Shown here in pieces: positions 2,497 to 16,201 of a DNA stretch of 64,000 nt. This stretch comes from Candidatus Falkowbacteria bacterium (GTDB taxonomy: Bacteria > Patescibacteriota > Patescibacteriia > UBA11705): contig DOZJ01000002.1 in the NCBI GenBank assembly GCA_003518055.1, positions 170,137-234,136 of the forward strand. The letters are read 5' to 3'. The notes under the pieces are model-generated. The model saw only the letters and a program-made list of their open reading frames with translations. It was not told the DNA's origin and did not search any database. Position numbers and translations under genes: made by a program. Each line of letters begins with the position of its first letter. Position 1 is the stretch's first letter.

Positions 2497-2542
2497 GCAT
2501 TTGCATATTTTTTTTTATTTCTATATACTACATTGTGTAGTA
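2497..2542 (+). promoter_or_regulatory. promoter (TTGCAT-17-TATACT) overlapped by the palindromic operator TACTACAttgTGTAGTA (2526-2542), a BlaI/CopY 'TACA..TGTA' type site
   Basis: perfect 7-bp inverted repeat with 3-nt spacer overlapping the -10 and the first ATG of the repressor ORF; the same motif recurs at 4002-4022. Confidence 0.55.
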
Positions 2543-2550
2543 GTAAAAAT

Positions 2551-2937
2551 ATGATAAATAAAAAAGTGAATTTTTTAGGAAAATTGGAAGCTGAAATAAT
2601 GGAAATCGTGTGGACCAATGGAACTGTTTCAGTCCGAGATGTGGTATCCGAATTGGAAAAACGAAAAAAAATCGCCTACACCACCGTAATGACGGTGATG
2701 ACGCGTTTGTTTAAAAAAAATATTTTGAAGCGCAAGCAAGACAAGGGCGGGGCATTTGTTTATCTACCGACGAAAGAAAAAAAAGAATTTGTCGCCCAAG
2801 CGTCAGAAAAAATGATTAGAAATTTTCTTCAGGAATTCGGGGATGTGGCGGTGGCGCAATTTGTGGATGTAATAGAAATGGCTGATGCCGAACATTCCGC
2901 GAGCTGGAAGAAAAAATTGAAAGATCTTCTTGAATAA
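2551..2937 (+). CDS. BlaI/MecI/CopY-family winged-helix transcriptional repressor
   Basis: N-terminal motifs L..E.EIM.IVW..G..SVRDV...L.....AYTTVMTVMTRL.KK characteristic of the penicillinase-repressor family; no C-terminal CxCxxxxCxC copper site; stop codon lies 1 nt before the M56 peptidase start. Confidence 0.7.
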   Translation: MINKKVNFLGKLEAEIMEIVWTNGTVSVRDVVSELEKRKKIAYTTVMTVMTRLFKKNILKRKQDKGGAFVYLPTKEKKEFVAQASEKMIRNFLQEFGDVAVAQFVDVIEMADAEHSASWKKKLKDLLE

Positions 2938-2938
2938 T

Positions 2939-3961
2939 ATGGAAATGACTTTTCGCCGTAAACAACAATATTCATATTTCCGGCTGACGATAATAATGAC
3001 GGCGGTTATTGGTTTATCGGTGTATGTTTTCGCCAGAATTTGGCAGAACGCTTTTTGGTATGGAAGAATTTTGGGGCACAAAATTCAAACCGCCTGTGGC
3101 TGCACGGAATTATCCGAGCTTATAATAATGCACCCGATTATTTTTGGTTCAGTTCTGGCCCTTGGCGTTTTGGCCGGAACGGCTGCGTTGTTGGCAGCGG
3201 TGAAGTTTTACACGATATGGTCGCAGACAAGGAAGTTTTGCCGGTTATACTTAAATTCTGCCAAGGCCAACCATTCAGCAAAGCTAAAAAAAACCCTGAA
3301 AAGAATGAAATTTGATAAGCAAAGGGTGGCTGAAACAGCGTGTGATGACCCTGTTGTGTTTTGTTATGGCTGGTGGAAACCAAAAATTTGCGTTTCGAGC
3401 GGTTTAGTCGCCATTTTGCATCCAGCTGAATTGGAAACAGTCTTGCGGCATGAGGAACAGCATGTGATCTCTCGAGAACCGGCGAAATTGTTCATGTTTA
3501 AATATTTTTACCATCTTTACTTTTTTCTGCCGGGGTTGAAAACATTAATAAAACAATATGAAACTTTTTCTGAAATGGCGGCGGATGAATGGGCGGTTAA
3601 TATGGTCGGAAATAAAAAAAATTTAGCGAGAGCAGTATGGAAATTATCTGAAACAGTCGAAAATAGAAATGTGAACTTATCTTTGTCATTTTTTACCTCA
3701 ATCGTGGCTGAACGTGTTAACAAATTTGCGGACAATGGCTATATGCCGCGCTTTCGCATCTGGGGCAGGGGTTTTGCGCTGGGAGCGGGTTCGGTCGTTG
3801 TTATCATGTTGCTTGTGGGCGCTTTCATCATGGATAGTGATCGAGCGCTGGCGATGCATAATTTTGGCGGTTGTTCGATTGAGGCCGGACCAGCGGACGG
3901 CAGAACTGCTTGTGCCTCAAACATGGCTGATCATCAATCAACTTCGACGTGCAGGCAATAA
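2939..3961 (+). CDS. BlaR1/MecR1-like M56 family membrane metallopeptidase (signal transducer) without a beta-lactam sensor domain; Cys/His/Met-rich C-terminal tail
   Basis: multiple TM helices; motif HPAELETVLRHEEQHV (HExxH) in the M56 context; C-terminus ...HNFGGCSIEAGPADGRTACASNMADHQSTSTC; translationally coupled to the repressor. Confidence 0.6.
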   Translation: MEMTFRRKQQYSYFRLTIIMTAVIGLSVYVFARIWQNAFWYGRILGHKIQTACGCTELSELIIMHPIIFGSVLALGVLAGTAALLAAVKFYTIWSQTRKFCRLYLNSAKANHSAKLKKTLKRMKFDKQRVAETACDDPVVFCYGWWKPKICVSSGLVAILHPAELETVLRHEEQHVISREPAKLFMFKYFYHLYFFLPGLKTLIKQYETFSEMAADEWAVNMVGNKKNLARAVWKLSETVENRNVNLSLSFFTSIVAERVNKFADNGYMPRFRIWGRGFALGAGSVVVIMLLVGAFIMDSDRALAMHNFGGCSIEAGPADGRTACASNMADHQSTSTCRQ

Positions 3962-3983
3962 GCGCACTGTGCATAAAAATTTC

Positions 3984-4022
3984 TTGACAATAATTATCCT
4001 GCCTACTACACTATGTAGTAGG
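3984..4022 (+). promoter_or_regulatory. promoter (TTGACA-17-TACACT) with palindromic operator CCTACTACActaTGTAGTAGG overlapping the -10
   Basis: perfect 9-bp inverted repeat sharing the TACTACA-n3-TGTAGTA core with the 2526-2542 site; located upstream of the HMA-domain membrane protein gene. Confidence 0.55.
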
Positions 4023-4061
4023 TATTTGTTTACTAAAATAAAATAATTAACTTGAATAAGT

Positions 4062-5831
4062 ATGAGCAAAATTACGATTCCGATCCGAGGTATGCACTGC
4101 CGATCTTGTGAAATATTGATTGAAAATAATATCAAAAAAATCGATGGTGTTAAAAAAGTAGAGGTTAGTCATAAATCGGGCCGGGCGGATGTTTTTTTTG
4201 AGCAAAACACGGCGCCCAGCGCGGCCTTGAAACAAGCGATTCAAGATTCGGGGTATGAAGTCGGAGCCAAGGGGAAGTTGCCATGGCTGTCTAAAAATAA
4301 ATATGATTATATTAATTTTTTGAAGGGAGCGGTCATTTTAATTTTTATATATTTAATTGCCGAAAGATTCGGTTTATTCGGAATTAGCGTTAACACTGAA
4401 AGCACAAGTTTGATGGTAGTTTTATTGGTCGGTTTGGTGGCCGGCATTTCCACCTGCATGGCACTTGTCGGCGGATTGGTTCTCAGCTTAGCGGCCAGAC
4501 ACGCTGAATTGCATCCGGAAATAACCCCCAAGGAAAAGTTCGTACCGCATCTATATTTTAATTTAGGCCGGATTATCGGATTCGCCGTGCTTGGAGGAGC
4601 GATCGGTTTAATCGGGTCAGCGCTCAGCCCATCAACCAGAGTGATCGGATTCATGACCGTCGCCATTGGCGCGGTGATGATTTTTCTCGGTTTGAAACTG
4701 GTAGAGATATTTCCCGCCCTGAAAGACAAATCGATCGCTCTGCCGAAATCAATTTCTCAGTTTTTGGGTGTTGGGCGGGAACAAAAAGAATACAGCCATA
4801 AGAATTCTTTTTATACCGGTGCCTTGACCTTTTTTCTGCCCTGCGGCTTCACACAGGCCATGCAGTTGTTCGCGGTCAGCAGCGGCAATTTTATTCAAGG
4901 TGCTTTGATCATGTCTCTTTTTGCTATTGGCACTGCTCCCGGTTTGCTCGGTGTTGGCGGTTTGGCGTCGGTTTTTCAGGGCAAGCAAGCAAAAGTATTT
5001 TTCGCAGCAACTGGGATTGCCGTTATATTACTCGGTTGGTTCAATATCGCGAATGGCAGCCAGCTCTTATTTCAAACGAAGATAGATGCAGATCAAGGAG
5101 AGATTATAAATTCCACAGGCATTCAGGAAATCCGAATGACCCAAGGAAACGGAGGCTATTCACCAAACAAATTTACGGTGGAAAAAGGCAAAACAGTACG
5201 CTGGATTATTACTTCAACCAATCAATTTTCCTGCGCCAGCGCTTTGGTCGTGCCGAAATATGGTATCAGTGAAAATTTGGTCAAGGGGGAAAATATTATT
5301 GAATTTGTTCCAACTCAAACCGGCGATATTCCATTTTCATGTTCCATGGGCATGTATCGAGGTGTAATCAAGGTGGTTGAACCCGGAACAACCAAAAAAA
5401 CATCCGCCATTAATACAAATGTTCCCGTGGCTCAGGCCGCGGCGGCGCCAAGCGGCAGTTGCTCCACAGGTGGAGGTGGGTGCGGCTGCGGCGGCGCGAG
5501 AGTGAAGCCAAGTTCTGATTCAACGCCTGTTAACGCCACAATAGAAAGCGGTGTTCAGTTAATTAAAACCGAATACTCAGAAGAAAAAGGGATATTTCCG
5601 AATAATTTTGTGGTGAAAAAGGGCATACCGGCGCGTTTTGAGATTACGGCCAAAGATGACGGCGAAGGTTGTTCAAATTCAATTGTCGTTCAGGGATTGC
5701 ATGATCAAGCTGAATACCTGAGAAGTGGCAATAAAATCATTATGGACTTCACAGCCGAACAAAACGGAGACTTTGCAATTACCTGCGGTATGGGAATGAT
5801 TAATTGGGGTAAAATTACCATCATTAATTAA
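4062..5831 (+). CDS. HMA-domain membrane protein: N-terminal heavy-metal-associated domain (GMHCRSCE), polytopic DsbD_2/TauE-like permease core, two C-terminal Cys/Met-containing cupredoxin-like domains
   Basis: MxCxxC HMA motif; about 6 TM segments with conserved Cys (ISTCMAL, FLPCGF); repeated ~100-aa C-terminal modules ending FSCSMGMYRGVIKVV and ITCGMGMINWGKITI. Confidence 0.5.
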   Translation: MSKITIPIRGMHCRSCEILIENNIKKIDGVKKVEVSHKSGRADVFFEQNTAPSAALKQAIQDSGYEVGAKGKLPWLSKNKYDYINFLKGAVILIFIYLIAERFGLFGISVNTESTSLMVVLLVGLVAGISTCMALVGGLVLSLAARHAELHPEITPKEKFVPHLYFNLGRIIGFAVLGGAIGLIGSALSPSTRVIGFMTVAIGAVMIFLGLKLVEIFPALKDKSIALPKSISQFLGVGREQKEYSHKNSFYTGALTFFLPCGFTQAMQLFAVSSGNFIQGALIMSLFAIGTAPGLLGVGGLASVFQGKQAKVFFAATGIAVILLGWFNIANGSQLLFQTKIDADQGEIINSTGIQEIRMTQGNGGYSPNKFTVEKGKTVRWIITSTNQFSCASALVVPKYGISENLVKGENIIEFVPTQTGDIPFSCSMGMYRGVIKVVEPGTTKKTSAINTNVPVAQAAAAPSGSCSTGGGGCGCGGARVKPSSDSTPVNATIESGVQLIKTEYSEEKGIFPNNFVVKKGIPARFEITAKDDGEGCSNSIVVQGLHDQAEYLRSGNKIIMDFTAEQNGDFAITCGMGMINWGKITIIN

Positions 5832-5847
5832 TATTAACCAAAATAAT

Positions 5848-6051
5848 ATGAAGATTAATTTTCAAATTACGGATTTGACTTGTGATGCCTGTATCAGTTT
5901 GAGTCAGGCCGCCCTAAAAAATTTACCGGGAGTGCAACAAGTAAACATTGAGCCGAATGGACTAACTGTGGTCGAGGCTGATCGGCCGATTGATTTTGAA
6001 GACATAAAAAACGAATTGGCTCGGGTGGGAAAAACCGCCGAGCAAATTTAA
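5848..6051 (+). CDS. CopZ-like small metallochaperone (HMA fold) with variant metal site LTCDAC
   Basis: 67 aa; HMA-like beta-alpha-beta-beta-alpha-beta length and CxxC in the first loop position. Confidence 0.45.
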   Translation: MKINFQITDLTCDACISLSQAALKNLPGVQQVNIEPNGLTVVEADRPIDFEDIKNELARVGKTAEQI

Positions 6052-6055
6052 AATT

Positions 6056-6427
6056 ATGGAGAAGCTAAATTTAACCCTACGGGGGATGAATTCCACGGCT
6101 GAACAAAAAATTTTGGAGCAAAATTTGTCCGCGCAAAACGCGATAAAAAAAGTTAGTTTTTTTTCAACCAAAAAAAACGTGGGGATCAGCTTGGAATGGG
6201 ATCAGGCGAAAATATCCAAGCAGCAGATTATGGACATAATTAATTTAAGCGGAGATTTTAATATTGAAGAAACTCTTGGTAGAGATGAAGCTAAGAATGG
6301 CGAAGAAAACCCAGTTATAGAGCCCGCAATGGCGTCTAGCAATTTAATGTATCTGGGTTTAGCTTGCGGTTTGTTTTTGATGTCAATGGTGTTCAATATC
6401 ATACTATTGTATATAATTATTAAATGA
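6056..6427 (+). CDS. degenerate HMA-like domain protein lacking the metal-binding cysteines (GMNSTAEQ) with a C-terminal TM anchor
   Basis: alignment of [19 protein letters not shown] to the HMA GMxCxxC region; hydrophobic C-terminus. Confidence 0.35.
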
Positions 6428-6440
6428 TAACGATTTATAT

Positions 6441-9377
6441 ATGGGAAAACGAGTAAAACTGAAAATTTATGGGATGCATTGCGCTTCCTGCGAAAAAATA
6501 ATCGAACTGGAATTGGCTGAAGTGCCGGGAGTAATGTCATCAAAGATTGATTCTATATCCGGGCTGGGAGAGGTTGAGGCTGAAGAAAACGTATCAGTAG
6601 AACAAGTGGTCAAGGCGGTGAAAAAGGCTGGATACGGGGCCGAAGTAATCAGCGATGAGGGGGTTGATCACGTGGCTGAGGCATTCCAGGTTGAAAAAAA
6701 AATTGTGGACGCGAAATCTCCGGTCAAAATCAAGCTTGAGTCATCGGTTACAGCTGACGGCGAATTTGGTGAAAAAGAAGATCGCCCAGTATTTACCGGC
6801 AAGATCAATCAAACAAAAAAAGGTGAGATTGAAATTCCGGCTGGCAGTCATGACGTGGAAAAAGCTATTGATAAAATTTTTAACGCGTCAAAGATTAATC
6901 AGCTTATAGCTTTGTTTTCAGGTGATTCCGTTGATAAACCCAAGCATGATAACCACGAGATGGTGAGAGCTGAACACGGTTTGGGGACGCACAATCAAAA
7001 AGAGTCCAATAATTCAGGCAAGAAAGACGATCAGTCAGCCAGTTTTATAATCAGCGGTATGCATTGCGCCTCCTGCGCTCTTATAATTGAAAAAAAATTA
7101 AAAACTGTACCCGGTGTCAAAGAAGCCAATGTTAATTTCAACGCGGAAAAAGCGCGGGTAATTTTCAATGCGAACCAATCAAGTGTTGATGATTTAATGA
7201 CAGCGGTCAAAGCGGCCGGTTATAAAGCTGAAGTGGCGGACACGGCTGACCCTGACGCTGAGAAAAAACGAAAAGAAGCAGAAATCAAAAATTATCGTAA
7301 TAAGTTTTTGATTGCGTTAATTTTAAGTTTACCGATGCTGTATTTCATGCTGTTTGATTTTTTCACCTTCATTCCTGGACGATCGGCGTTACTTCCATTG
7401 ATCGGAATAATATCACTGATTTTAACCATTCCGGTGCAGTTTTATATTGGCGCGGGATTTTATCGAGGCATGTGGAGCAGTTTGAAAATGAAAACGTTTA
7501 ACATGGATAGTTTGATCGCCATCGGAACCAGCACGGCATTTTTTTACAGTTTAATTCAATATTTGTCATACGCCATTGGCAATCGATCGCTGATCGGTCT
7601 GGAAGGGATGAAAATACCCGAGTTGTATTTTGAAACCGCGGCTTTTCTGATTACTTTTGTGATACTTGGCAAATGGCTGGAAACCAAAGCCAAAGGGAAA
7701 ACATCGGACGCGATAAAAAAGCTCATGGGTTTGCAGCCAAAGACAGCGAGGATCATCCAGAATGGACAAACTCGAGATGTGCCGCTCGATGAAGTGAAAC
7801 AGGGGGACATTATTTTGGTTCGTCCGGGTGAAAAGATCCCGGTTGACGGTGTGATCGTCAAAGGGTTATCAGCGGTTGATGAATCAATGTTAACCGGAGA
7901 AAGCATCCCGGTCGAAAAGAACGTAGGGGATAAAGTCATTGGCGCGACGATTAACAAGCATGGCAGTTTTGAATTTGAAGCCACTCGCGTAGGCAATGAA
8001 ACCGCCTTGGCTCAAATTGTCCGTTTGATTGAAGAAGCGCAAGGCTCAAAGGCGCCGATACAGGCCATGGCCGACAAAATATCCGCTTGGTTCGTGCCGA
8101 TTGTTCTCATTTTAGCGGTGTTAACATTTATTGTGTGGTACTTATTTTTGGGAGCCAGTTTATCATTTGCTTTGATGGCGTTCACTTCCGTGATCGTGAT
8201 TGCCTGTCCCTGCGCGCTTGGATTGGCGACGCCTACAGCCATTATGGTGGGCACAGGCAAAGGAGCGGAGTATGGCGTTTTGATCAAGGGCGGAGAACCG
8301 CTCGAAGCGGCGAATAAAATTAAAACCATGGTTTTTGATAAAACCGGAACGTTAACAAATGGTAAGCCGGAGGTAACAGATGTCCTTAGTTTGTCGGATA
8401 TGGATGAGGACGAGGTGGCGGCTATTGCCGGCAGTTTGGAAAAATTGTCAGAACATCCATTGGCCGAGGCGATTGTCAGATACGCGGAGGAAGAAGACAT
8501 TGAAATGAGTGAGGCGGTTGATTTCAAGGCGATTCCCGGGCATGGTGTGGAAGGTCGCGTTGAGAATTCGAAATACTATTTTGGCAATCGGAAACTGATA
8601 AAAGATAAGTTGAATTTAAATATTGAAAAAACCGAACGCAAAGTTCGTAAGTTGGAGGAGGCGGGGAAAACTGTCATGATTTTGGCCAGTGAAACAGCGG
8701 TTATTGGTCTGATCGGGGTGGCAGACACAGTGAAGGAGAGTTCTCTTGAGGCGGTTCGCCAATTGCAAAAGCGGGGAATAGAAGTGTTTATGATTACCGG
8801 TGATAATCAGAGAACCGCGGACGCGATCGCCAAACAGGTGGGCATTACCAATGTTTTGGCTGAAGTCCTGCCGGAAGATAAAGCGAACGAGGTGAGAAAA
8901 TTACAAGACTCAGGGAAGAAAGTGGCTATGGTGGGTGACGGAATTAATGACGCTCCCGCCCTGGCACAAGCTGATCTCGGCATCGCTATGGGTGGAGGGA
9001 CAGACGTGGCTATGGAGACAGGCGGCATTGTGATCATAAAAAATGATTTACGCGATGTCTTGACCGCGATTGGTCTGAGCCAAGACACGATGGGCAAGAT
9101 CCGGCAAAATATGTTTTTCGCTTTATTTTATAATGTGATGGGCATTCCGATCGCGGCGCGGGTGTTTGCCGGATTAGGGTTGGTGCTCAAACCGGAATTA
9201 GCCGGGTTGGCGATGGCTTTCAGTTCAATTTCGGTGGTGACAAACTCTTTGCTGCTCAAATATTATAATCCGAAAAAGAAAAATTACGCCTCAATGGTGG
9301 CACCGTATGTTTTGGCGGTGATTTTTGCTCTGGTTTTCATTGAGTTTGGCCGGTTAAGTTCAAGTATGGCGGAATAA
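6441..9377 (+). CDS. copA: copper-translocating P1B-type ATPase with two N-terminal HMA domains
   Basis: [11 protein letters not shown] and [15 protein letters not shown] motifs; CPC motif ([12 protein letters not shown]); DKTGTLT phosphorylation site; GDGINDAP hinge. Confidence 0.9.
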
Positions 9378-9430
9378 ATGTAATTTTTTATGGCATTATT
9401 TATAATTCTCAAAATACAATCACAGTGATT

Positions 9431-9883
9431 ATGAAAAAAATGCTTATAATGCTAATTATAATCGTGGGAATCTACGGTCTGTACCGATTGGCGAATCAAG
9501 ACGCTCCGGTTCAGGTGAATGTAGACGCTCCGGTTCAGACTCCGCCAAAAGATGAATCCACCAGTAAATCCGTAATATTGTCCGAGGAAATAAAGAGAAG
9601 GCTATATGTGGCAGATATTGTTGCCGATGGAGTCATGATTCCGGACGTTTTTACCCTAAAAGTCGGCCAGCCGGTTCGTCTTGAGATCAATCCCAAGGTG
9701 GATGTGTCCGGCTGCATGAATACGATTCTAATTTCTGAATTATTTGATCCTTTCCCCGATGACGCGCCGTTAGTGGAAAAGGACAAACAGATCGTGATGG
9801 AATTTACGCCGAAAAAGATTGGAACTTATTATCTCACATGTGTGATGGGCGTGCCGTGGGGGACAATAGAGGTTAAAGGATAA
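9431..9883 (+). CDS. secreted/membrane-anchored single-domain Cys/Met cupredoxin-like protein, paralogous to the C-terminal domains of the 4062..5831 protein
   Basis: N-terminal TM/signal segment; motifs VSGCMNTILISELF ... YYLTCVMGVPWGTIEV parallel FSCASALVVP...FSCSMGMYRGVIKV; the track ORF starts at GTG 9425, ATG at 9431 preferred. Confidence 0.45.
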   Translation: MKKMLIMLIIIVGIYGLYRLANQDAPVQVNVDAPVQTPPKDESTSKSVILSEEIKRRLYVADIVADGVMIPDVFTLKVGQPVRLEINPKVDVSGCMNTILISELFDPFPDDAPLVEKDKQIVMEFTPKKIGTYYLTCVMGVPWGTIEVKG

Positions 9884-10059: not shown

Positions 10060-10323
10060 ATGGATCGCCTGTCATTGAAAAAGTACGGCTGGAAATGCGT
10101 GCTCGGGGCGGAGGTCGCTTATGTCCTGTGTTTGGCCGGAGCTTTTTTGCCGGTGCGTTCGGCCGAGGCGGTGGAGCTGCATCATCGATTGTTTGAAATT
10201 TTTCCGGGGTTTACGTGGATCAATGCCTCAAGTGTAATTTTCGGTCTAGTGTACATGTTTGTTTTCGCTTGGATTTTTGCTTGGTATTACGTCTGGATGC
10301 ATAATACCAGCATGGTCAAATAA
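10060..10323 (+). CDS. small hydrophobic membrane protein
   Basis: 87-aa ORF with ATG start and two predicted TM helices. Confidence 0.4.
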   Translation: MDRLSLKKYGWKCVLGAEVAYVLCLAGAFLPVRSAEAVELHHRLFEIFPGFTWINASSVIFGLVYMFVFAWIFAWYYVWMHNTSMVK

Positions 10324-10324
10324 T

Positions 10325-10368
10325 AGTTAAATAAAAAACAATCGCGATGAAGCGGTTGTTTTTATTTT
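10325..10368 (+). terminator. rho-independent terminator
   Basis: aaacaatcgc-gatgaa-gcggttgttt hairpin followed by a T-run. Confidence 0.5.
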
Positions 10369-10473: not shown

Positions 10474-11589
10474 TTACTTCGCCGGATACTGCTTCACGTA
10501 TTTGGCCGCGCTGGAGAATTCCTTATTGTCCATATTGGCCATCTCATCCAAAAAGGCCGAGTCTCCAAGCTTCTCGAAATATCGAGCAATCTTATCGGCA
10601 TGCTCTCGGTAAAAACATCTGTGTGAGATATTGGCGTATTTCTCCGAAATATTCCCACGCCGGACTACGTCTTTCAGCCAGTCAGGGTCAACATACTGCA
10701 TGACCATGATGACGAATTCAGCTGAGAGCGGGTAAACAGGATAGTCTGCAAACTCAACCAACTCCATTAGAAACTTCTTGTGCTTTCGCTTCAAAAGGCG
10801 TTCAAGACCGGAGCGATAACAGTCATCCATAAAGGTATGCTTGCTGATATCGGGACTGACTCTGTCCCACTTCCGCCAGCGCCAAAGCAGAGCCTTCAAC
10901 TTTGTTTCGCTGGGGATTAGCCTGAGAATGCGACTGGCAGTCTCTTGGCTAAGGTCGTCGAACCACCGCTCTTCAAGCAGATAAAACAATCTGATCAAAA
11001 ATTCCTCATCATCCGTGACCAGCGGAATAAAATTCGGGTCATACGCCGGGAGCAATTGCAGCGATGCTTTGCCTCCGTTTAGAGCAGTATACGGTGAATC
11101 TGGCCGCCGGTTATGGTCTTTGAACCACACGCTCATGTAAATCAGGGCTTTGAGCCCGGTATAGGGGCATCGCAGTTCGCGTACATCATAGTTTGTTACT
11201 GACTTTCGTGTCCTGATCTGATGGCCGCCGGCATCAAACTGAGTGAGATAAAGGATTTCTCCAGAGTCTTTTTCAACCAAGCCGATTTCGAAATACTTCT
11301 GTTCGCTGACTAGCAATACAAGCGTGCCGCGTTTGAATTCTGTTGAGTTTTCCTGGCCAAGCTGGCTAAGAAAATCCGCGGTCATGGATTCAGCCAATTC
11401 CCTTGCAACATGAAGCTGCGCTTCTGTCATCATTTTGGGATCATATCTGTCAATTCGTAGATGCAGACCGATGTCGCCGGGATGAAGCTGTTTTGCTTCA
11501 TAATTCTTGGCTACAGCTCTGCCGTCGTTCCCGATTACCACCTTCAGCACATGTCCGCTCGGGCTTCTGAAGTAGTTCTGGGTACTCAT
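10474..11589 (-). CDS. hypothetical protein (371 aa) encoded in a GC-rich islet
   Basis: GGAGGAG RBS directly upstream of the ATG at 11589. The upstream extension to 11775 in the track is Arg/Ala-rich, typical of translated GC-rich leader. Confidence 0.45.
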   Translation of the reverse strand: MSTQNYFRSPSGHVLKVVIGNDGRAVAKNYEAKQLHPGDIGLHLRIDRYDPKMMTEAQLHVARELAESMTADFLSQLGQENSTEFKRGTLVLLVSEQKYFEIGLVEKDSGEILYLTQFDAGGHQIRTRKSVTNYDVRELRCPYTGLKALIYMSVWFKDHNRRPDSPYTALNGGKASLQLLPAYDPNFIPLVTDDEEFLIRLFYLLEERWFDDLSQETASRILRLIPSETKLKALLWRWRKWDRVSPDISKHTFMDDCYRSGLERLLKRKHKKFLMELVEFADYPVYPLSAEFVIMVMQYVDPDWLKDVVRRGNISEKYANISHRCFYREHADKIARYFEKLGDSAFLDEMANMDNKEFSSAAKYVKQYPAK

Positions 11590-11817
11590 GTCTTGTCTCC
11601 TCCTCGGTTCCACACCTTCGGGCGTCCCCGAATGTTTCTTGCTAGGAGCATCCAAGCAAGCGGTATCCGCCTTTGCAACGCGTGCTTCAGCAGACATTCT
11701 TCGGTGCGCCATAGGCGCAGGTTTTCCTGCCGACACTCTTCGAGTGACGGCAAGCAGTATCCCATGGCGTCCCATTGGGATCTAAAACATTAACAAAAAC
11801 AACCAACTTTGTCAATG
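11590..11817 (-). promoter_or_regulatory. promoter (TTGACA-17-TAATGT on the minus strand, about 11790-11817) plus a ~200-nt GC-rich structured 5-prime leader
   Basis: several stable hairpins on the minus strand (cccaatggg, gcgcctatggcgc, gcttgcttgg..ctagcaag); leader composition is unlike the AT-rich surroundings. Confidence 0.35.
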
Positions 11818-15692: not shown

Positions 15693-15734
15693 TGTGGATA
15701 ACTTTTAACCAGGTGGGGGATGTGGATAACTTTT
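15693..15734 (+). promoter_or_regulatory. two perfect DnaA boxes (TGTGGATAA = complement of TTATCCACA), 28 bp apart, in the Fur-family gene promoter region
   Basis: TGTGGATAACTTTT at 15693-15706 and 15721-15734; a TATAAT follows at about 15757. Confidence 0.45.
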
Positions 15735-15787: not shown

Positions 15788-16201
15788 ATGGTTAAATCAT
15801 CCAAATCAAAGCAAAATCTATTCCGTGACACTACCCAGCGTCAGTTAATCTTGGAATATTTACACCGCTCACTCGCCCACCCTACCGCGCAAGAAATTTT
15901 TCGGATTATTAAAAAGACTCTTCCGCGAGTCAGTCTATCAACTATTTATCGCAATTTGATTATTCTCGAAAAACAAGGTAGGGTCTCTTCCCTATCATAT
16001 TCCAAAAATTTTACGCGCTTCGAGCTGAATCACGGCGATCATTATCATTTTATCTGCGAGAAGTGCGACAAGGTGGAGCATGTCAATCTTGATCCCCTGC
16101 TTGAATTGAACTCACAGCTGGCCAGGCGTCATGATCTGGTTGTCAATAATCATCAGCTGACATTTTTCGGGTTTTGCCAAAATTGTCAAAAGAAAAAATG
16201 A
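15788..16201 (+). CDS. Fur-family metalloregulator (Fur/Zur/PerR type)
   Basis: HPTAQEIF...LSTIYRNL...HYHFICEKCDKVEH...GFCQNCQ. The track ORF starts at GTG 15713 and overlaps the DnaA boxes; the ATG at 15788 (or 15761) is preferred. Confidence 0.7.
   Translation: MVKSSKSKQNLFRDTTQRQLILEYLHRSLAHPTAQEIFRIIKKTLPRVSLSTIYRNLIILEKQGRVSSLSYSKNFTRFELNHGDHYHFICEKCDKVEHVNLDPLLELNSQLARRHDLVVNNHQLTFFGFCQNCQKKK

Follow-up and report, generated by a model that had tools for sequence, protein, structure and literature searches.

A BlaI-like repressor paired with a sensor-less M56 membrane peptidase as a candidate proteolytic switch for copper export in a Candidatus Falkowbacteria bacterium

Known copper-export operons are controlled by copper-binding regulators (CopY, CsoR, CueR) or by two-component kinases. 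The BlaR-like proteolysis of a BlaI-type factor has previously been shown only for the cyanobacterial switch between plastocyanin and cytochrome c6, which is governed by the PetR/PetP pair of Synechocystis sp. PCC 6803 (Garcia-Canas et al. 2021; bioRxiv 10.1101/2020.07.31.226407; commentary PMC7896320). The degradation of PetR by PetP depends on the presence of copper, PetR itself is indifferent to copper, and the mode of copper sensing by PetP was left unresolved (bioRxiv 10.1101/2020.07.31.226407). According to a 2023 review, PetRP is not tied to the genes of copper homeostasis, and the role of the BlaR homologues of heterotrophs is still to be elucidated. Here we describe a locus of a Candidatus Falkowbacteria bacterium in which the genes of a BlaI-like repressor and an M56 membrane peptidase stand in front of a Cu(I)-export operon. 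The locus lies in a stretch of 64,000 nucleotides (nt), hereafter the window, taken from the groundwater metagenome contig DOZJ01000002.1 (assembly GCA_003518055.1, positions 170,137 to 234,136). The copper unit is compact, and all of its genes are encoded on the + strand between positions 2500 and 10363 of the window.

We estimate the probability at roughly 0.6 that this Cu(I)-export operon is controlled by a pair of genes acting as a proteolytic switch in the manner of BlaI/BlaR1 (PetR/PetP). Proteolytic derepression is the best-supported reading because the gene pair and its operators recur in relatives, the repressor is free of conserved Cys and His and carries a VAVAQF motif, and the protease has a CxC loop. 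The relatives are 25 Patescibacteria loci (L001–L025) obtained from a scan of one genome per species, and in all 25 the repressor gene immediately precedes the M56 gene, with both on one strand. An earlier note on this DNA had proposed that the signal-induced proteolysis of a BlaI-like repressor switches on Cu(I) export and had called this an unusual logic of metal sensing. The architecture of the locus and the comparison of the relatives support the proposal, and the logic is indeed unusual, but it is not unprecedented in view of PetR/PetP. PetR/PetP already uses the proteolytic principle; what is new here is the link to copper export, the cysteine-based candidate sensor, and the lineage. The full-text literature search turned up neither a report of copA under the control of a BlaI/M56 pair nor anything similar in Patescibacteria.

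The locus shares several traits with PetR/PetP. In both cases, a BlaI-family factor lacking the CopY site is encoded in one operon with a sensor-less M48/M56 membrane protease, the start and stop codons of the two genes overlap or abut, and the inverted repeats have a 3-nt spacer (GACA-N3-TGTC for PetRP and TACA-N3-TGTA here). The targets are different, namely petE/petJ (plastocyanin/cytochrome c6, with the GACN5GTC motif) for PetRP and a cop or envelope thiol operon preceded by TACTACA-N3-TGTAGTA for the present pair. PetP (Slr0241), as described in the literature, has four transmembrane (TM) helices, two conserved Met residues in a 14-residue loop, and no tail, whereas the M56 protein studied here has three predicted TM helices and a Cys-rich tail, and its equivalent loop holds CxC followed by HP instead of the Met pair. 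The lineages also differ, PetRP being cyanobacterial and the present pair belonging to Patescibacteria.

Similarly, the locus resembles BlaI/BlaR1 and MecI/MecR1 of S. aureus in its Penicillinase_R repressor, in the TACA/TGTA operator, and in a conserved repressor segment that aligns with SLVLNFVE of MecI, and it resembles BlaR1 in that the M56 gluzincin domain is placed between TM helices. Unlike in BlaR1/MecR1, the penicillin-binding sensor is replaced by a short Cys/His tail and the number of TM helices is three instead of four. Moreover, the repressor gene comes first, and the regulon serves metal export rather than the production of beta-lactamase or PBP2a.

The repressor gene (2551–2937, + strand) encodes a winged-helix protein of 128 amino acids (aa). 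It matched Penicillinase_R (PF03965) at 98.3 bits against a cutoff of 22.6, and its sequence matches in the PDB were BlaI, MecI, and M. tuberculosis BlaI. In the comparison with the CopY/TcrY equivalog model TIGR02698, it reached 55.4 bits, below the cutoff of 121.95. The protein contains no Cys and one His and lacks the CopY metal motif CxCxxxxCxC, in agreement with its earlier assignment to the BlaI/MecI/CopY family without the copper switch of CopY. A cryptic metal site, which would have spoken against the proposal of the earlier note, was looked for in the alignment of 26 family members, and not a single Cys or His column was conserved. The absence of a metal site suggests that the repressor itself is not the metal sensor.

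An alternative explanation holds that the repressor senses the metal directly, like CopY, and that the M56 protein is unrelated or has a housekeeping function. The best NCBIfam match of the repressor by score was in fact the CopY/TcrY model, but this score lies far under the equivalog cutoff, Cys is lacking, no His is conserved, and the repressor and M56 genes are linked in every one of the 25 loci. Together with its variant, in which the palindromes described below are mainly terminators or repeat elements, we regard this explanation as very improbable. CopY, CopR, and TcrY of Lactobacillales do share with the present system the winged-helix family, a cop-box-like core on the promoter of a copA–copZ operon, and autoregulation. 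They differ from it in the metal-binding cysteines and in the protease partner, which is always present here, and the cop box KACA-N2-TGTA has a spacer of two nucleotides compared with three in our operators (four in two loci).

Outside the DNA-binding helices, the best-conserved stretch of the 26 aligned repressors is the invariant G-[DE]-VAVAQF-[VI]-D. In the HMMER alignment, VAVAQF lies opposite the SLVLNFVE segment of MecI, which we take to contain the MecI/BlaI cleavage bond N101–F102. The conserved motif is compatible with a protease recognition site, although it is no proof of one. We consider it likely that the M56 protein inactivates the repressor through cleavage.

The M56 gene (2939–3961, + strand) encodes a sensor-less M56/M48 gluzincin membrane peptidase of 340 aa, as indicated by the Pfam match, the conserved residues, and the structural model. 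Its ATG codon at 2939 begins one base past the stop codon TAA (2935–2937) of the repressor gene. The alternative starts are TTG at 2930, which overlaps the repressor gene, and ATG at 2945, which is used in the public gene call; we set the start at 2939 because the N-termini of the homologues align there. The two genes had been described before as translationally coupled. Their tight adjacency was confirmed, and the coupling itself is a suggestion from this spacing only.

The protein matched Peptidase_M56 at 46.5 bits (cutoff 31), Peptidase_M48 matched as well, and the HEEQH motif is present. None of the models for a beta-lactam sensor domain reached its cutoff (blaR1_generic, 21.7 vs. 400). 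The protein stops 36–40 residues past the last TM helix, and its last 41 residues include three Cys, two His, and two Met. Thus, the earlier description of an HExxH peptidase that has a Cys/His/Met-rich tail and no penicillin-binding sensor holds. The hydropathy analysis placed TM segments at residues 16–34, 67–85, and 279–297 (numbered from ATG 2939). Clusters of Lys and Arg flank the catalytic domain on either side and also mark the N-terminus; therefore, the N-terminus and the HExxH domain are predicted to be cytoplasmic, while the loop between TM1 and TM2 and the tail are predicted to face outward. This predicted topology, with three TM helices, the N-terminus in, and the C-terminus out, is not that of BlaR1, which has four TM helices and an outward N-terminus.

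The AlphaFold 2 model built on 20 homologues had a mean predicted local distance difference test (pLDDT) score of 78.5, and its tail (residues 312–343) was left unmodelled with a pLDDT below 50. The top Foldseek matches of the model were the cryo-electron microscopy (cryo-EM) structures of S. aureus BlaR1 (8exp, 8exq, and 8exr, all with a probability of 1.00), followed among the PDB fold matches by ZMPSTE24/Ste24 and HtpX. It should be noted that the link to BlaR1 came from the fold search only, as the sequence search of the PDB with the M56 protein returned zero matches.

The alignment of the M56 proteins (343-residue numbering) showed that the catalytic residues H174, E175, and H178 and the downstream E215 are invariant, as is characteristic of the M56 domain of BlaR1. 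Also invariant are C56-x-C58 (CGC in the window) in the outward loop and H68-P69, where TM2 begins. Four tail residues, H310, C315, C328, and C341, are conserved in at least 90% of the sequences. All intact M56 proteins from the 25 loci have the loop CxC; the truncated protein of L009 was not scorable. In that Komeilibacteria locus (7692–8001), the M56 match covers only the part from residue 141 on, and the open reading frame (ORF) has 206 aa; the gene could be frameshifted, a pseudogene, or misassembled.

A HMMER search of 1.84 billion representatives yielded 142 proteins at E <= 1e-30. Some 95 cluster representatives (50% identity) carry the loop CxC, usually together with four tail Cys, and the motif vanishes below approximately E 1e-45. 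The close M56 homologues all belong to Patescibacteria, Magasanikbacteria, Falkowbacteria, Komeilibacteria, and Parcubacteria among them, and the word-indexed profile search likewise recovered the Patescibacteria clade and then weak matches only. Among ten short M56 relatives whose names were looked up, none was cyanobacterial; Chloroflexi and Dojkabacteria were found instead.

These data point to the invariant CxC of the TM1–TM2 loop together with the tail cysteines, not the tail alone, as the most conserved candidate sensor. The Cys/His/Met-rich tail on which the earlier note had relied is indeed present, but as the most conserved candidate it needs the loop CxC in addition. That the loop and the tail form the signal-binding site appears to us close to an even bet.

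The alignment revealed another invariant pair of cysteines, C145 and C154 (FCYG...KIC), which in the AlphaFold 2 model lie on neighbouring strands beside the HExxH helix. They bear on an alternative in which copper is sensed on the cytoplasmic side, either by this pair or by copper-loaded CopZ docking there, and the outward cysteines are structural. The invariance of the pair, its position near the active site, the CopZ-like chaperone encoded in the operon, and the cytoplasmic location of the substrates of CopA would all suit such sensing. Nevertheless, a pair of this type occurs in 33 of the 62 short M56 relatives without the CxC loop and is missing in 35 of the 109 with the loop, whereas the family is defined by the loop CxC and the tail cysteines. 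We thus consider sensing at the cytoplasmic face quite improbable. As it does not co-vary with the CxC loop, the pair was rejected as a family-specific sensor; it does not define the family because it is common to many short M56 proteins that have no loop motif. The pattern FCxG...[KR][IV]C may represent a structural or metal site of the wider sensor-less M56 group.

Two near-identical operators had been proposed to overlap the −10 elements of the two promoters, and both were found as exact palindromes on TATACT and TACACT. The first operator (op1; TACTACA-TTG-TGTAGTA, TACTACATTGTGTAGTA) occupies positions 2526–2542 over the −10 hexamer of the promoter-like site of the repressor–protease operon, which consists of TTTGCA (2500–2505), 18 nt, and TATACT (2524–2529) on the + strand, and its location predicts autoregulation. 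The second operator (op2; TACTACA-CTA-TGTAGTA, TACTACACTATGTAGTA; 4004–4020) overlaps the −10 hexamer of the promoter-like site of the copper operon (3984–4012, + strand), which consists of TTGACA (3984–3989), 17 nt, and TACACT (4007–4012). At op2, the palindrome is part of an 11-bp extended palindrome with a T-rich tract (4000–4024). The pattern TACTACA-N3-TGTAGTA has only these two matches in the 64 kb when up to two mismatches are allowed, compared with 0.04 expected.

The search of related genomes for the same operator, which the earlier note had suggested, showed that both palindromes are conserved. With up to two mismatches, op1 was detected in 23 of the 25 loci at 26–78 nt upstream of the repressor start (187 nt in L012), and op2, also in 23, at 50–320 nt past the M56 gene. 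L021 and L025 carry the same half-sites with a 4-nt spacer, so that both operators are present in all 25 loci. The operators are thus conserved while the identity of the proteins across the loci is only 32–50%, which can be read as strong phylogenetic footprinting. In the 24 aligned loci, the op2 promoter has a TTGACA-like −35 element, in six cases TTTAC or GGACA/AGACA, which precedes the palindrome by 14 nt, and because this spacing is fixed, the −10 element (TACACT or TACAAT) falls inside op2. Upstream of op1, a −35-like element TTGC/TTGAC is found at an equal distance in the relatives. The operator core holds the TACA/TGTA signature of the BlaI/CopY repressor family. Judging from the sequences, it is very likely that the repressor binds both operators and controls both promoters.

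Unlike op1, the op2 palindrome gains three to five complementary outer bases and a T-rich tract. The predicted RNA hairpins of op2 have folding energies from −14.5 to −16.6 kcal/mol (z from −4.1 to −6.9; −14.5 kcal/mol and z −4.1 for the copy of the window), while those of op1 are weak and lack the extended stem. Across the 24 loci, the core of op2 is invariant, whereas its five outer pairs vary on both sides and yet stay complementary: we counted 23 double changes compared with 9.1 +/- 2.4 in shuffled alignments, a number that none of 500 shuffles reached, and slid registers gave far lower values. Since the outer pairs keep their complementarity where a protein contact would conserve the sequence, and since op1 lacks the extension, we infer that op2 terminates read-through of the repressor–protease transcript as well as acting as an operator. 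The transcript of the copper operon, starting about 7 nt past the −10 element, would begin in the 3′ arm of the hairpin and would escape termination.

The strong hairpin of op2 with its covarying flanks is also what favours the variant mentioned above, under which the palindromes would chiefly be terminators or repeats, and a third perfect copy between convergent genes in L024 fits it as well. However, op1 has no extended stem and is located one promoter length downstream of a −35-like element in the window and in most of the 24 loci, and the core carries the TACA/TGTA signature of the repressor family. The third palindrome of L024 (3374–3390), which lies 4.2 kb upstream of the repressor gene and has complementary flanks, looks terminator-like rather than like a promoter operator.

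Another element was noticed next to the op2 promoter. The sequence TGTGGATAA is found 7–8 nt upstream of the −35 element in 20 of 23 relatives, approximately 35 nt upstream of op2, and by motif comparison the window has TGTGCATAA, one mismatch from this box, at 3968–3976 (+ strand). With a C after it, TGTGGATAA gives a perfect DnaA box when reverse-complemented. The sequence also precedes a few other strong promoter-like sites, and 29 exact copies were counted in the 358 kb of the loci against a naive expectation of about 2.7. The only exact copies in the window are located at 15693–15701 and 15721–15729, 28 nt apart and directly upstream of an ORF for a Fur-family regulator (15790–16201). As a general promoter element of the window, the box was rejected for lack of enrichment (22 matches vs. 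15.8 expected at one mismatch). Possible roles of the box are those of an upstream promoter element and of a site for a second regulator.

The profile searches confirmed all the genes that had been listed downstream of op2. The first of them (4062–5831) encodes a fusion of 589 aa comprising an HMA domain with CxxC, DsbD_2, and two Cupredoxin_1 domains (45.9, 115.5, and 64.4 bits, respectively). It is followed by the genes for a CopZ-like HMA metallochaperone of 67 aa with a CDAC motif (5848–6051; Pfam HMA, 27.9 bits) and for a degenerate HMA-like protein of 123 aa that lacks the metal-binding Cys and has a C-terminal TM helix (6056–6427). For the latter, the Pfam scan gave zero matches, and a weak similarity to MerTP was seen (E 0.0039). 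The next gene (6441–9377) encodes CopA, a P1B-type Cu(I) ATPase of 978 aa with two N-terminal HMA domains, which scored 644.5 bits with TIGR01511 (cutoff 397) and 723 bits with the PRK10671 CopA model. The motifs CPC, YN, and MxxSS, which are markers of the Cu(I) P1B-1 subclass, are seen in its translation and place the protein in this subclass. The small membrane-anchored cupredoxin-like protein of 152 aa (9425–9883) matched Cupredoxin_1 at 21 bits, under the cutoff of 27, and resembles the C-terminal domain of the HMA–DsbD fusion of the relatives (tblastn down to 2e-19). All these genes are on the + strand. The earlier note had placed the end of the island at 9883. The genes up to this position were confirmed, but the unit probably extends through an ORF for a DUF5676-like protein with two TM helices (10060–10323, + strand; a weak Pfam match of 19.8 bits, under the cutoff) and ends at a terminator-like hairpin with a T run (10334–10363, + strand). 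A similar ORF is present in the L011 island.

The relatives were divided according to the genes that follow op2. In type A, which comprises the window and seven relatives (L001–L006 and L009), op2 is followed by the same copper-export operon. The orthologues of the HMA–DsbD–cupredoxin fusion are 61–69% identical in these seven loci, the CopZ-like gene was seen in six of them (no separate match in L009), and the degenerate HMA-like gene is conserved in L001–L005 and L009. Type B consists of 17 other loci (L008 and L010–L025), among which L021 and L025 are counted although no list of their downstream genes was made, and L007 was left unassigned as it ends just past op2. The type-B operon is approximately 5–7 kb long and encodes envelope thiol-redox and metal proteins. 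Its first gene encodes a membrane protein of about 250 aa with no Pfam match, and the Pfam scan of five loci detected thioredoxin-like, DUF1573, DsbD_TM, AhpC/TSA-Redoxin/SCO1-like, DUF2933, DUF3105, YibE/F, SHOCT, and DUF5676-like proteins; a small protein with a His/Cys-rich N-terminus is encoded there too.

In the type-B islands L008, L022, and L023, a CopA or HMA–DsbD match is preceded by a CsoR-like gene (PF02583) at a distance of no more than about 1 kb, and CsoR matches were also obtained in L015 and L021, while L020 has a CopA match further downstream and no CsoR match. Known CsoR–copA operons have the same output as the present system, namely the derepression of an operon for a Cu(I) P-type ATPase, but they depend on a cytoplasmic Cu(I)-binding repressor, and the sensor proposed here is a membrane protease. 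No CsoR gene, no second copy of the switch, and no thiol operon were found in the 64-kb window. In the window, this leaves the BlaI-like repressor as the one regulator of copper export that can be seen. In L002, a CsoR-like ORF (6494–6772) is located directly after op2 and before the HMA–DsbD gene; here the BlaI-like repressor and CsoR would both control the copper operon, an arrangement that is a possible evolutionary intermediate.

In the distance tree of the M56 proteins, type A forms one clade and every other branch is of type B. The most economical history leads from a thiol operon behind op2 with a separate CsoR–copA unit, through a stage with both CsoR and the copper operon behind op2, to one in which the copper operon follows op2 directly, and the wiring of the window is the derived state.

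The content of the regulons raises the question of the signal. Copper is suggested as the input because of the regulon content in both locus types, the binding of Cu(I) by the CxC motifs of CopY (which occurs 1:1), and the precedent of PetR/PetP, and we consider that the signal is probably copper or silver. Copper is likely but not the sole candidate, because the switch of most relatives drives an envelope thiol-redox/metal operon and not copA.

The main rival explanation, therefore, is that the switch senses thiol/disulfide (oxidative) stress in the envelope, that oxidation of the outward cysteines activates the peptidase, and that the copper genes were recruited secondarily because copper causes thiol oxidation. 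The type-B regulon makes it a credible rival, copper and thiol stress are chemically linked, and it agrees with several of our results. Behind op2, 17 of the 25 loci have an operon other than that for copper export, the five scanned type-B loci encode thioredoxin-like, DsbD_TM, and AhpC/TSA-Redoxin/SCO1-like proteins there, the copper-wired loci are one derived clade on the M56 tree, and CsoR, where present, precedes the copper genes. Yet the type-B operon also encodes DUF2933 and the small His/Cys-rich protein, and the islands L008, L022, and L023 have the CsoR-like gene at most about 1 kb upstream of the CopA or HMA–DsbD match. Operons for thiol oxidoreductases of the Scs type, which those of type B resemble, are themselves copper-tolerance systems, which counts against a pure thiol signal, and copper export makes up the whole regulon of the window and of six relatives. 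On balance, we regard thiol sensing as unlikely, and we rank detection at the cytoplasmic face, like detection by the repressor itself, below it.

In the mechanism that we propose for the preferred reading of proteolytic derepression, a dimer of the Cys-free repressor would occupy both operators at rest and, lying over the −10 elements, would silence its own operon at op1 and the copper operon at op2. The three-TM M56 zinc peptidase would have its catalytic domain in the cytoplasm and its CxC/His-Pro loop and short Cys/His tail facing outward. A thiophilic metal, most likely Cu(I) and possibly Ag(I), would bind the outward cysteines, and the activated peptidase would cut the repressor in or near VAVAQF of the dimerisation helix, which would release both promoters. 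Meanwhile, the op2 hairpin in the read-through RNA would insulate the copper operon from the repressor promoter.

Several points weigh against this reading. The cleavage and the metal binding are proposals based on sequence. No metal site is visible in the tail, since its pLDDT is below 50, and the tail of the window has three Cys whereas the usual number is four. An even-numbered set of outward cysteines could be structural disulfides, and the thiol-redox operon of most relatives fits redox sensing equally well. Furthermore, the CsoR behind op2 in L002 implies that cytoplasmic Cu(I) is sensed by a different protein where both are present, and the copper pumped by CopA is cytoplasmic, whereas the proposed sensor would monitor the exterior of the cell.

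The possibility that the copper unit is a horizontally acquired island was rejected, as its GC content (0.415–0.454 in 2-kb bins from 2 to 10 kb) is within the range of the window (0.395–0.498). The flanking ORFs on the − strand (205–2232 and 10474–11775) encode proteins of 245, 204, and 433 aa without a family assignment, and a flanking protein of 113 aa has a cREC_REC (PF20274) match in the public gene call.

The locus extends the proteolytic principle to copper detoxification, in a group, Patescibacteria, that is almost entirely without copper-dependent respiration. A wider picture, more tentative than the switch itself and than the assignment of its binding site, is that of a lineage-wide receptor whose outward CxC and four-Cys tail bind copper, or read thiol oxidation, and trigger the destruction of the repressor; one clade would have rewired it from the thiol operon to copA as CsoR was lost, with op2 serving as a terminator as well. 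The CxC and the tail cysteines make a sharply defined candidate sensing motif. If this wider picture is true, a ligand site would be defined for the first time in a sensor-less M56 signalling protease, and copper detoxification would for the first time be seen under a proteolytic copper sensor. The series of loci also illustrates the re-targeting of a regulon, and it offers clean examples of operators and promoters for the uncultivated Patescibacteria, whose transcription signals are poorly known.

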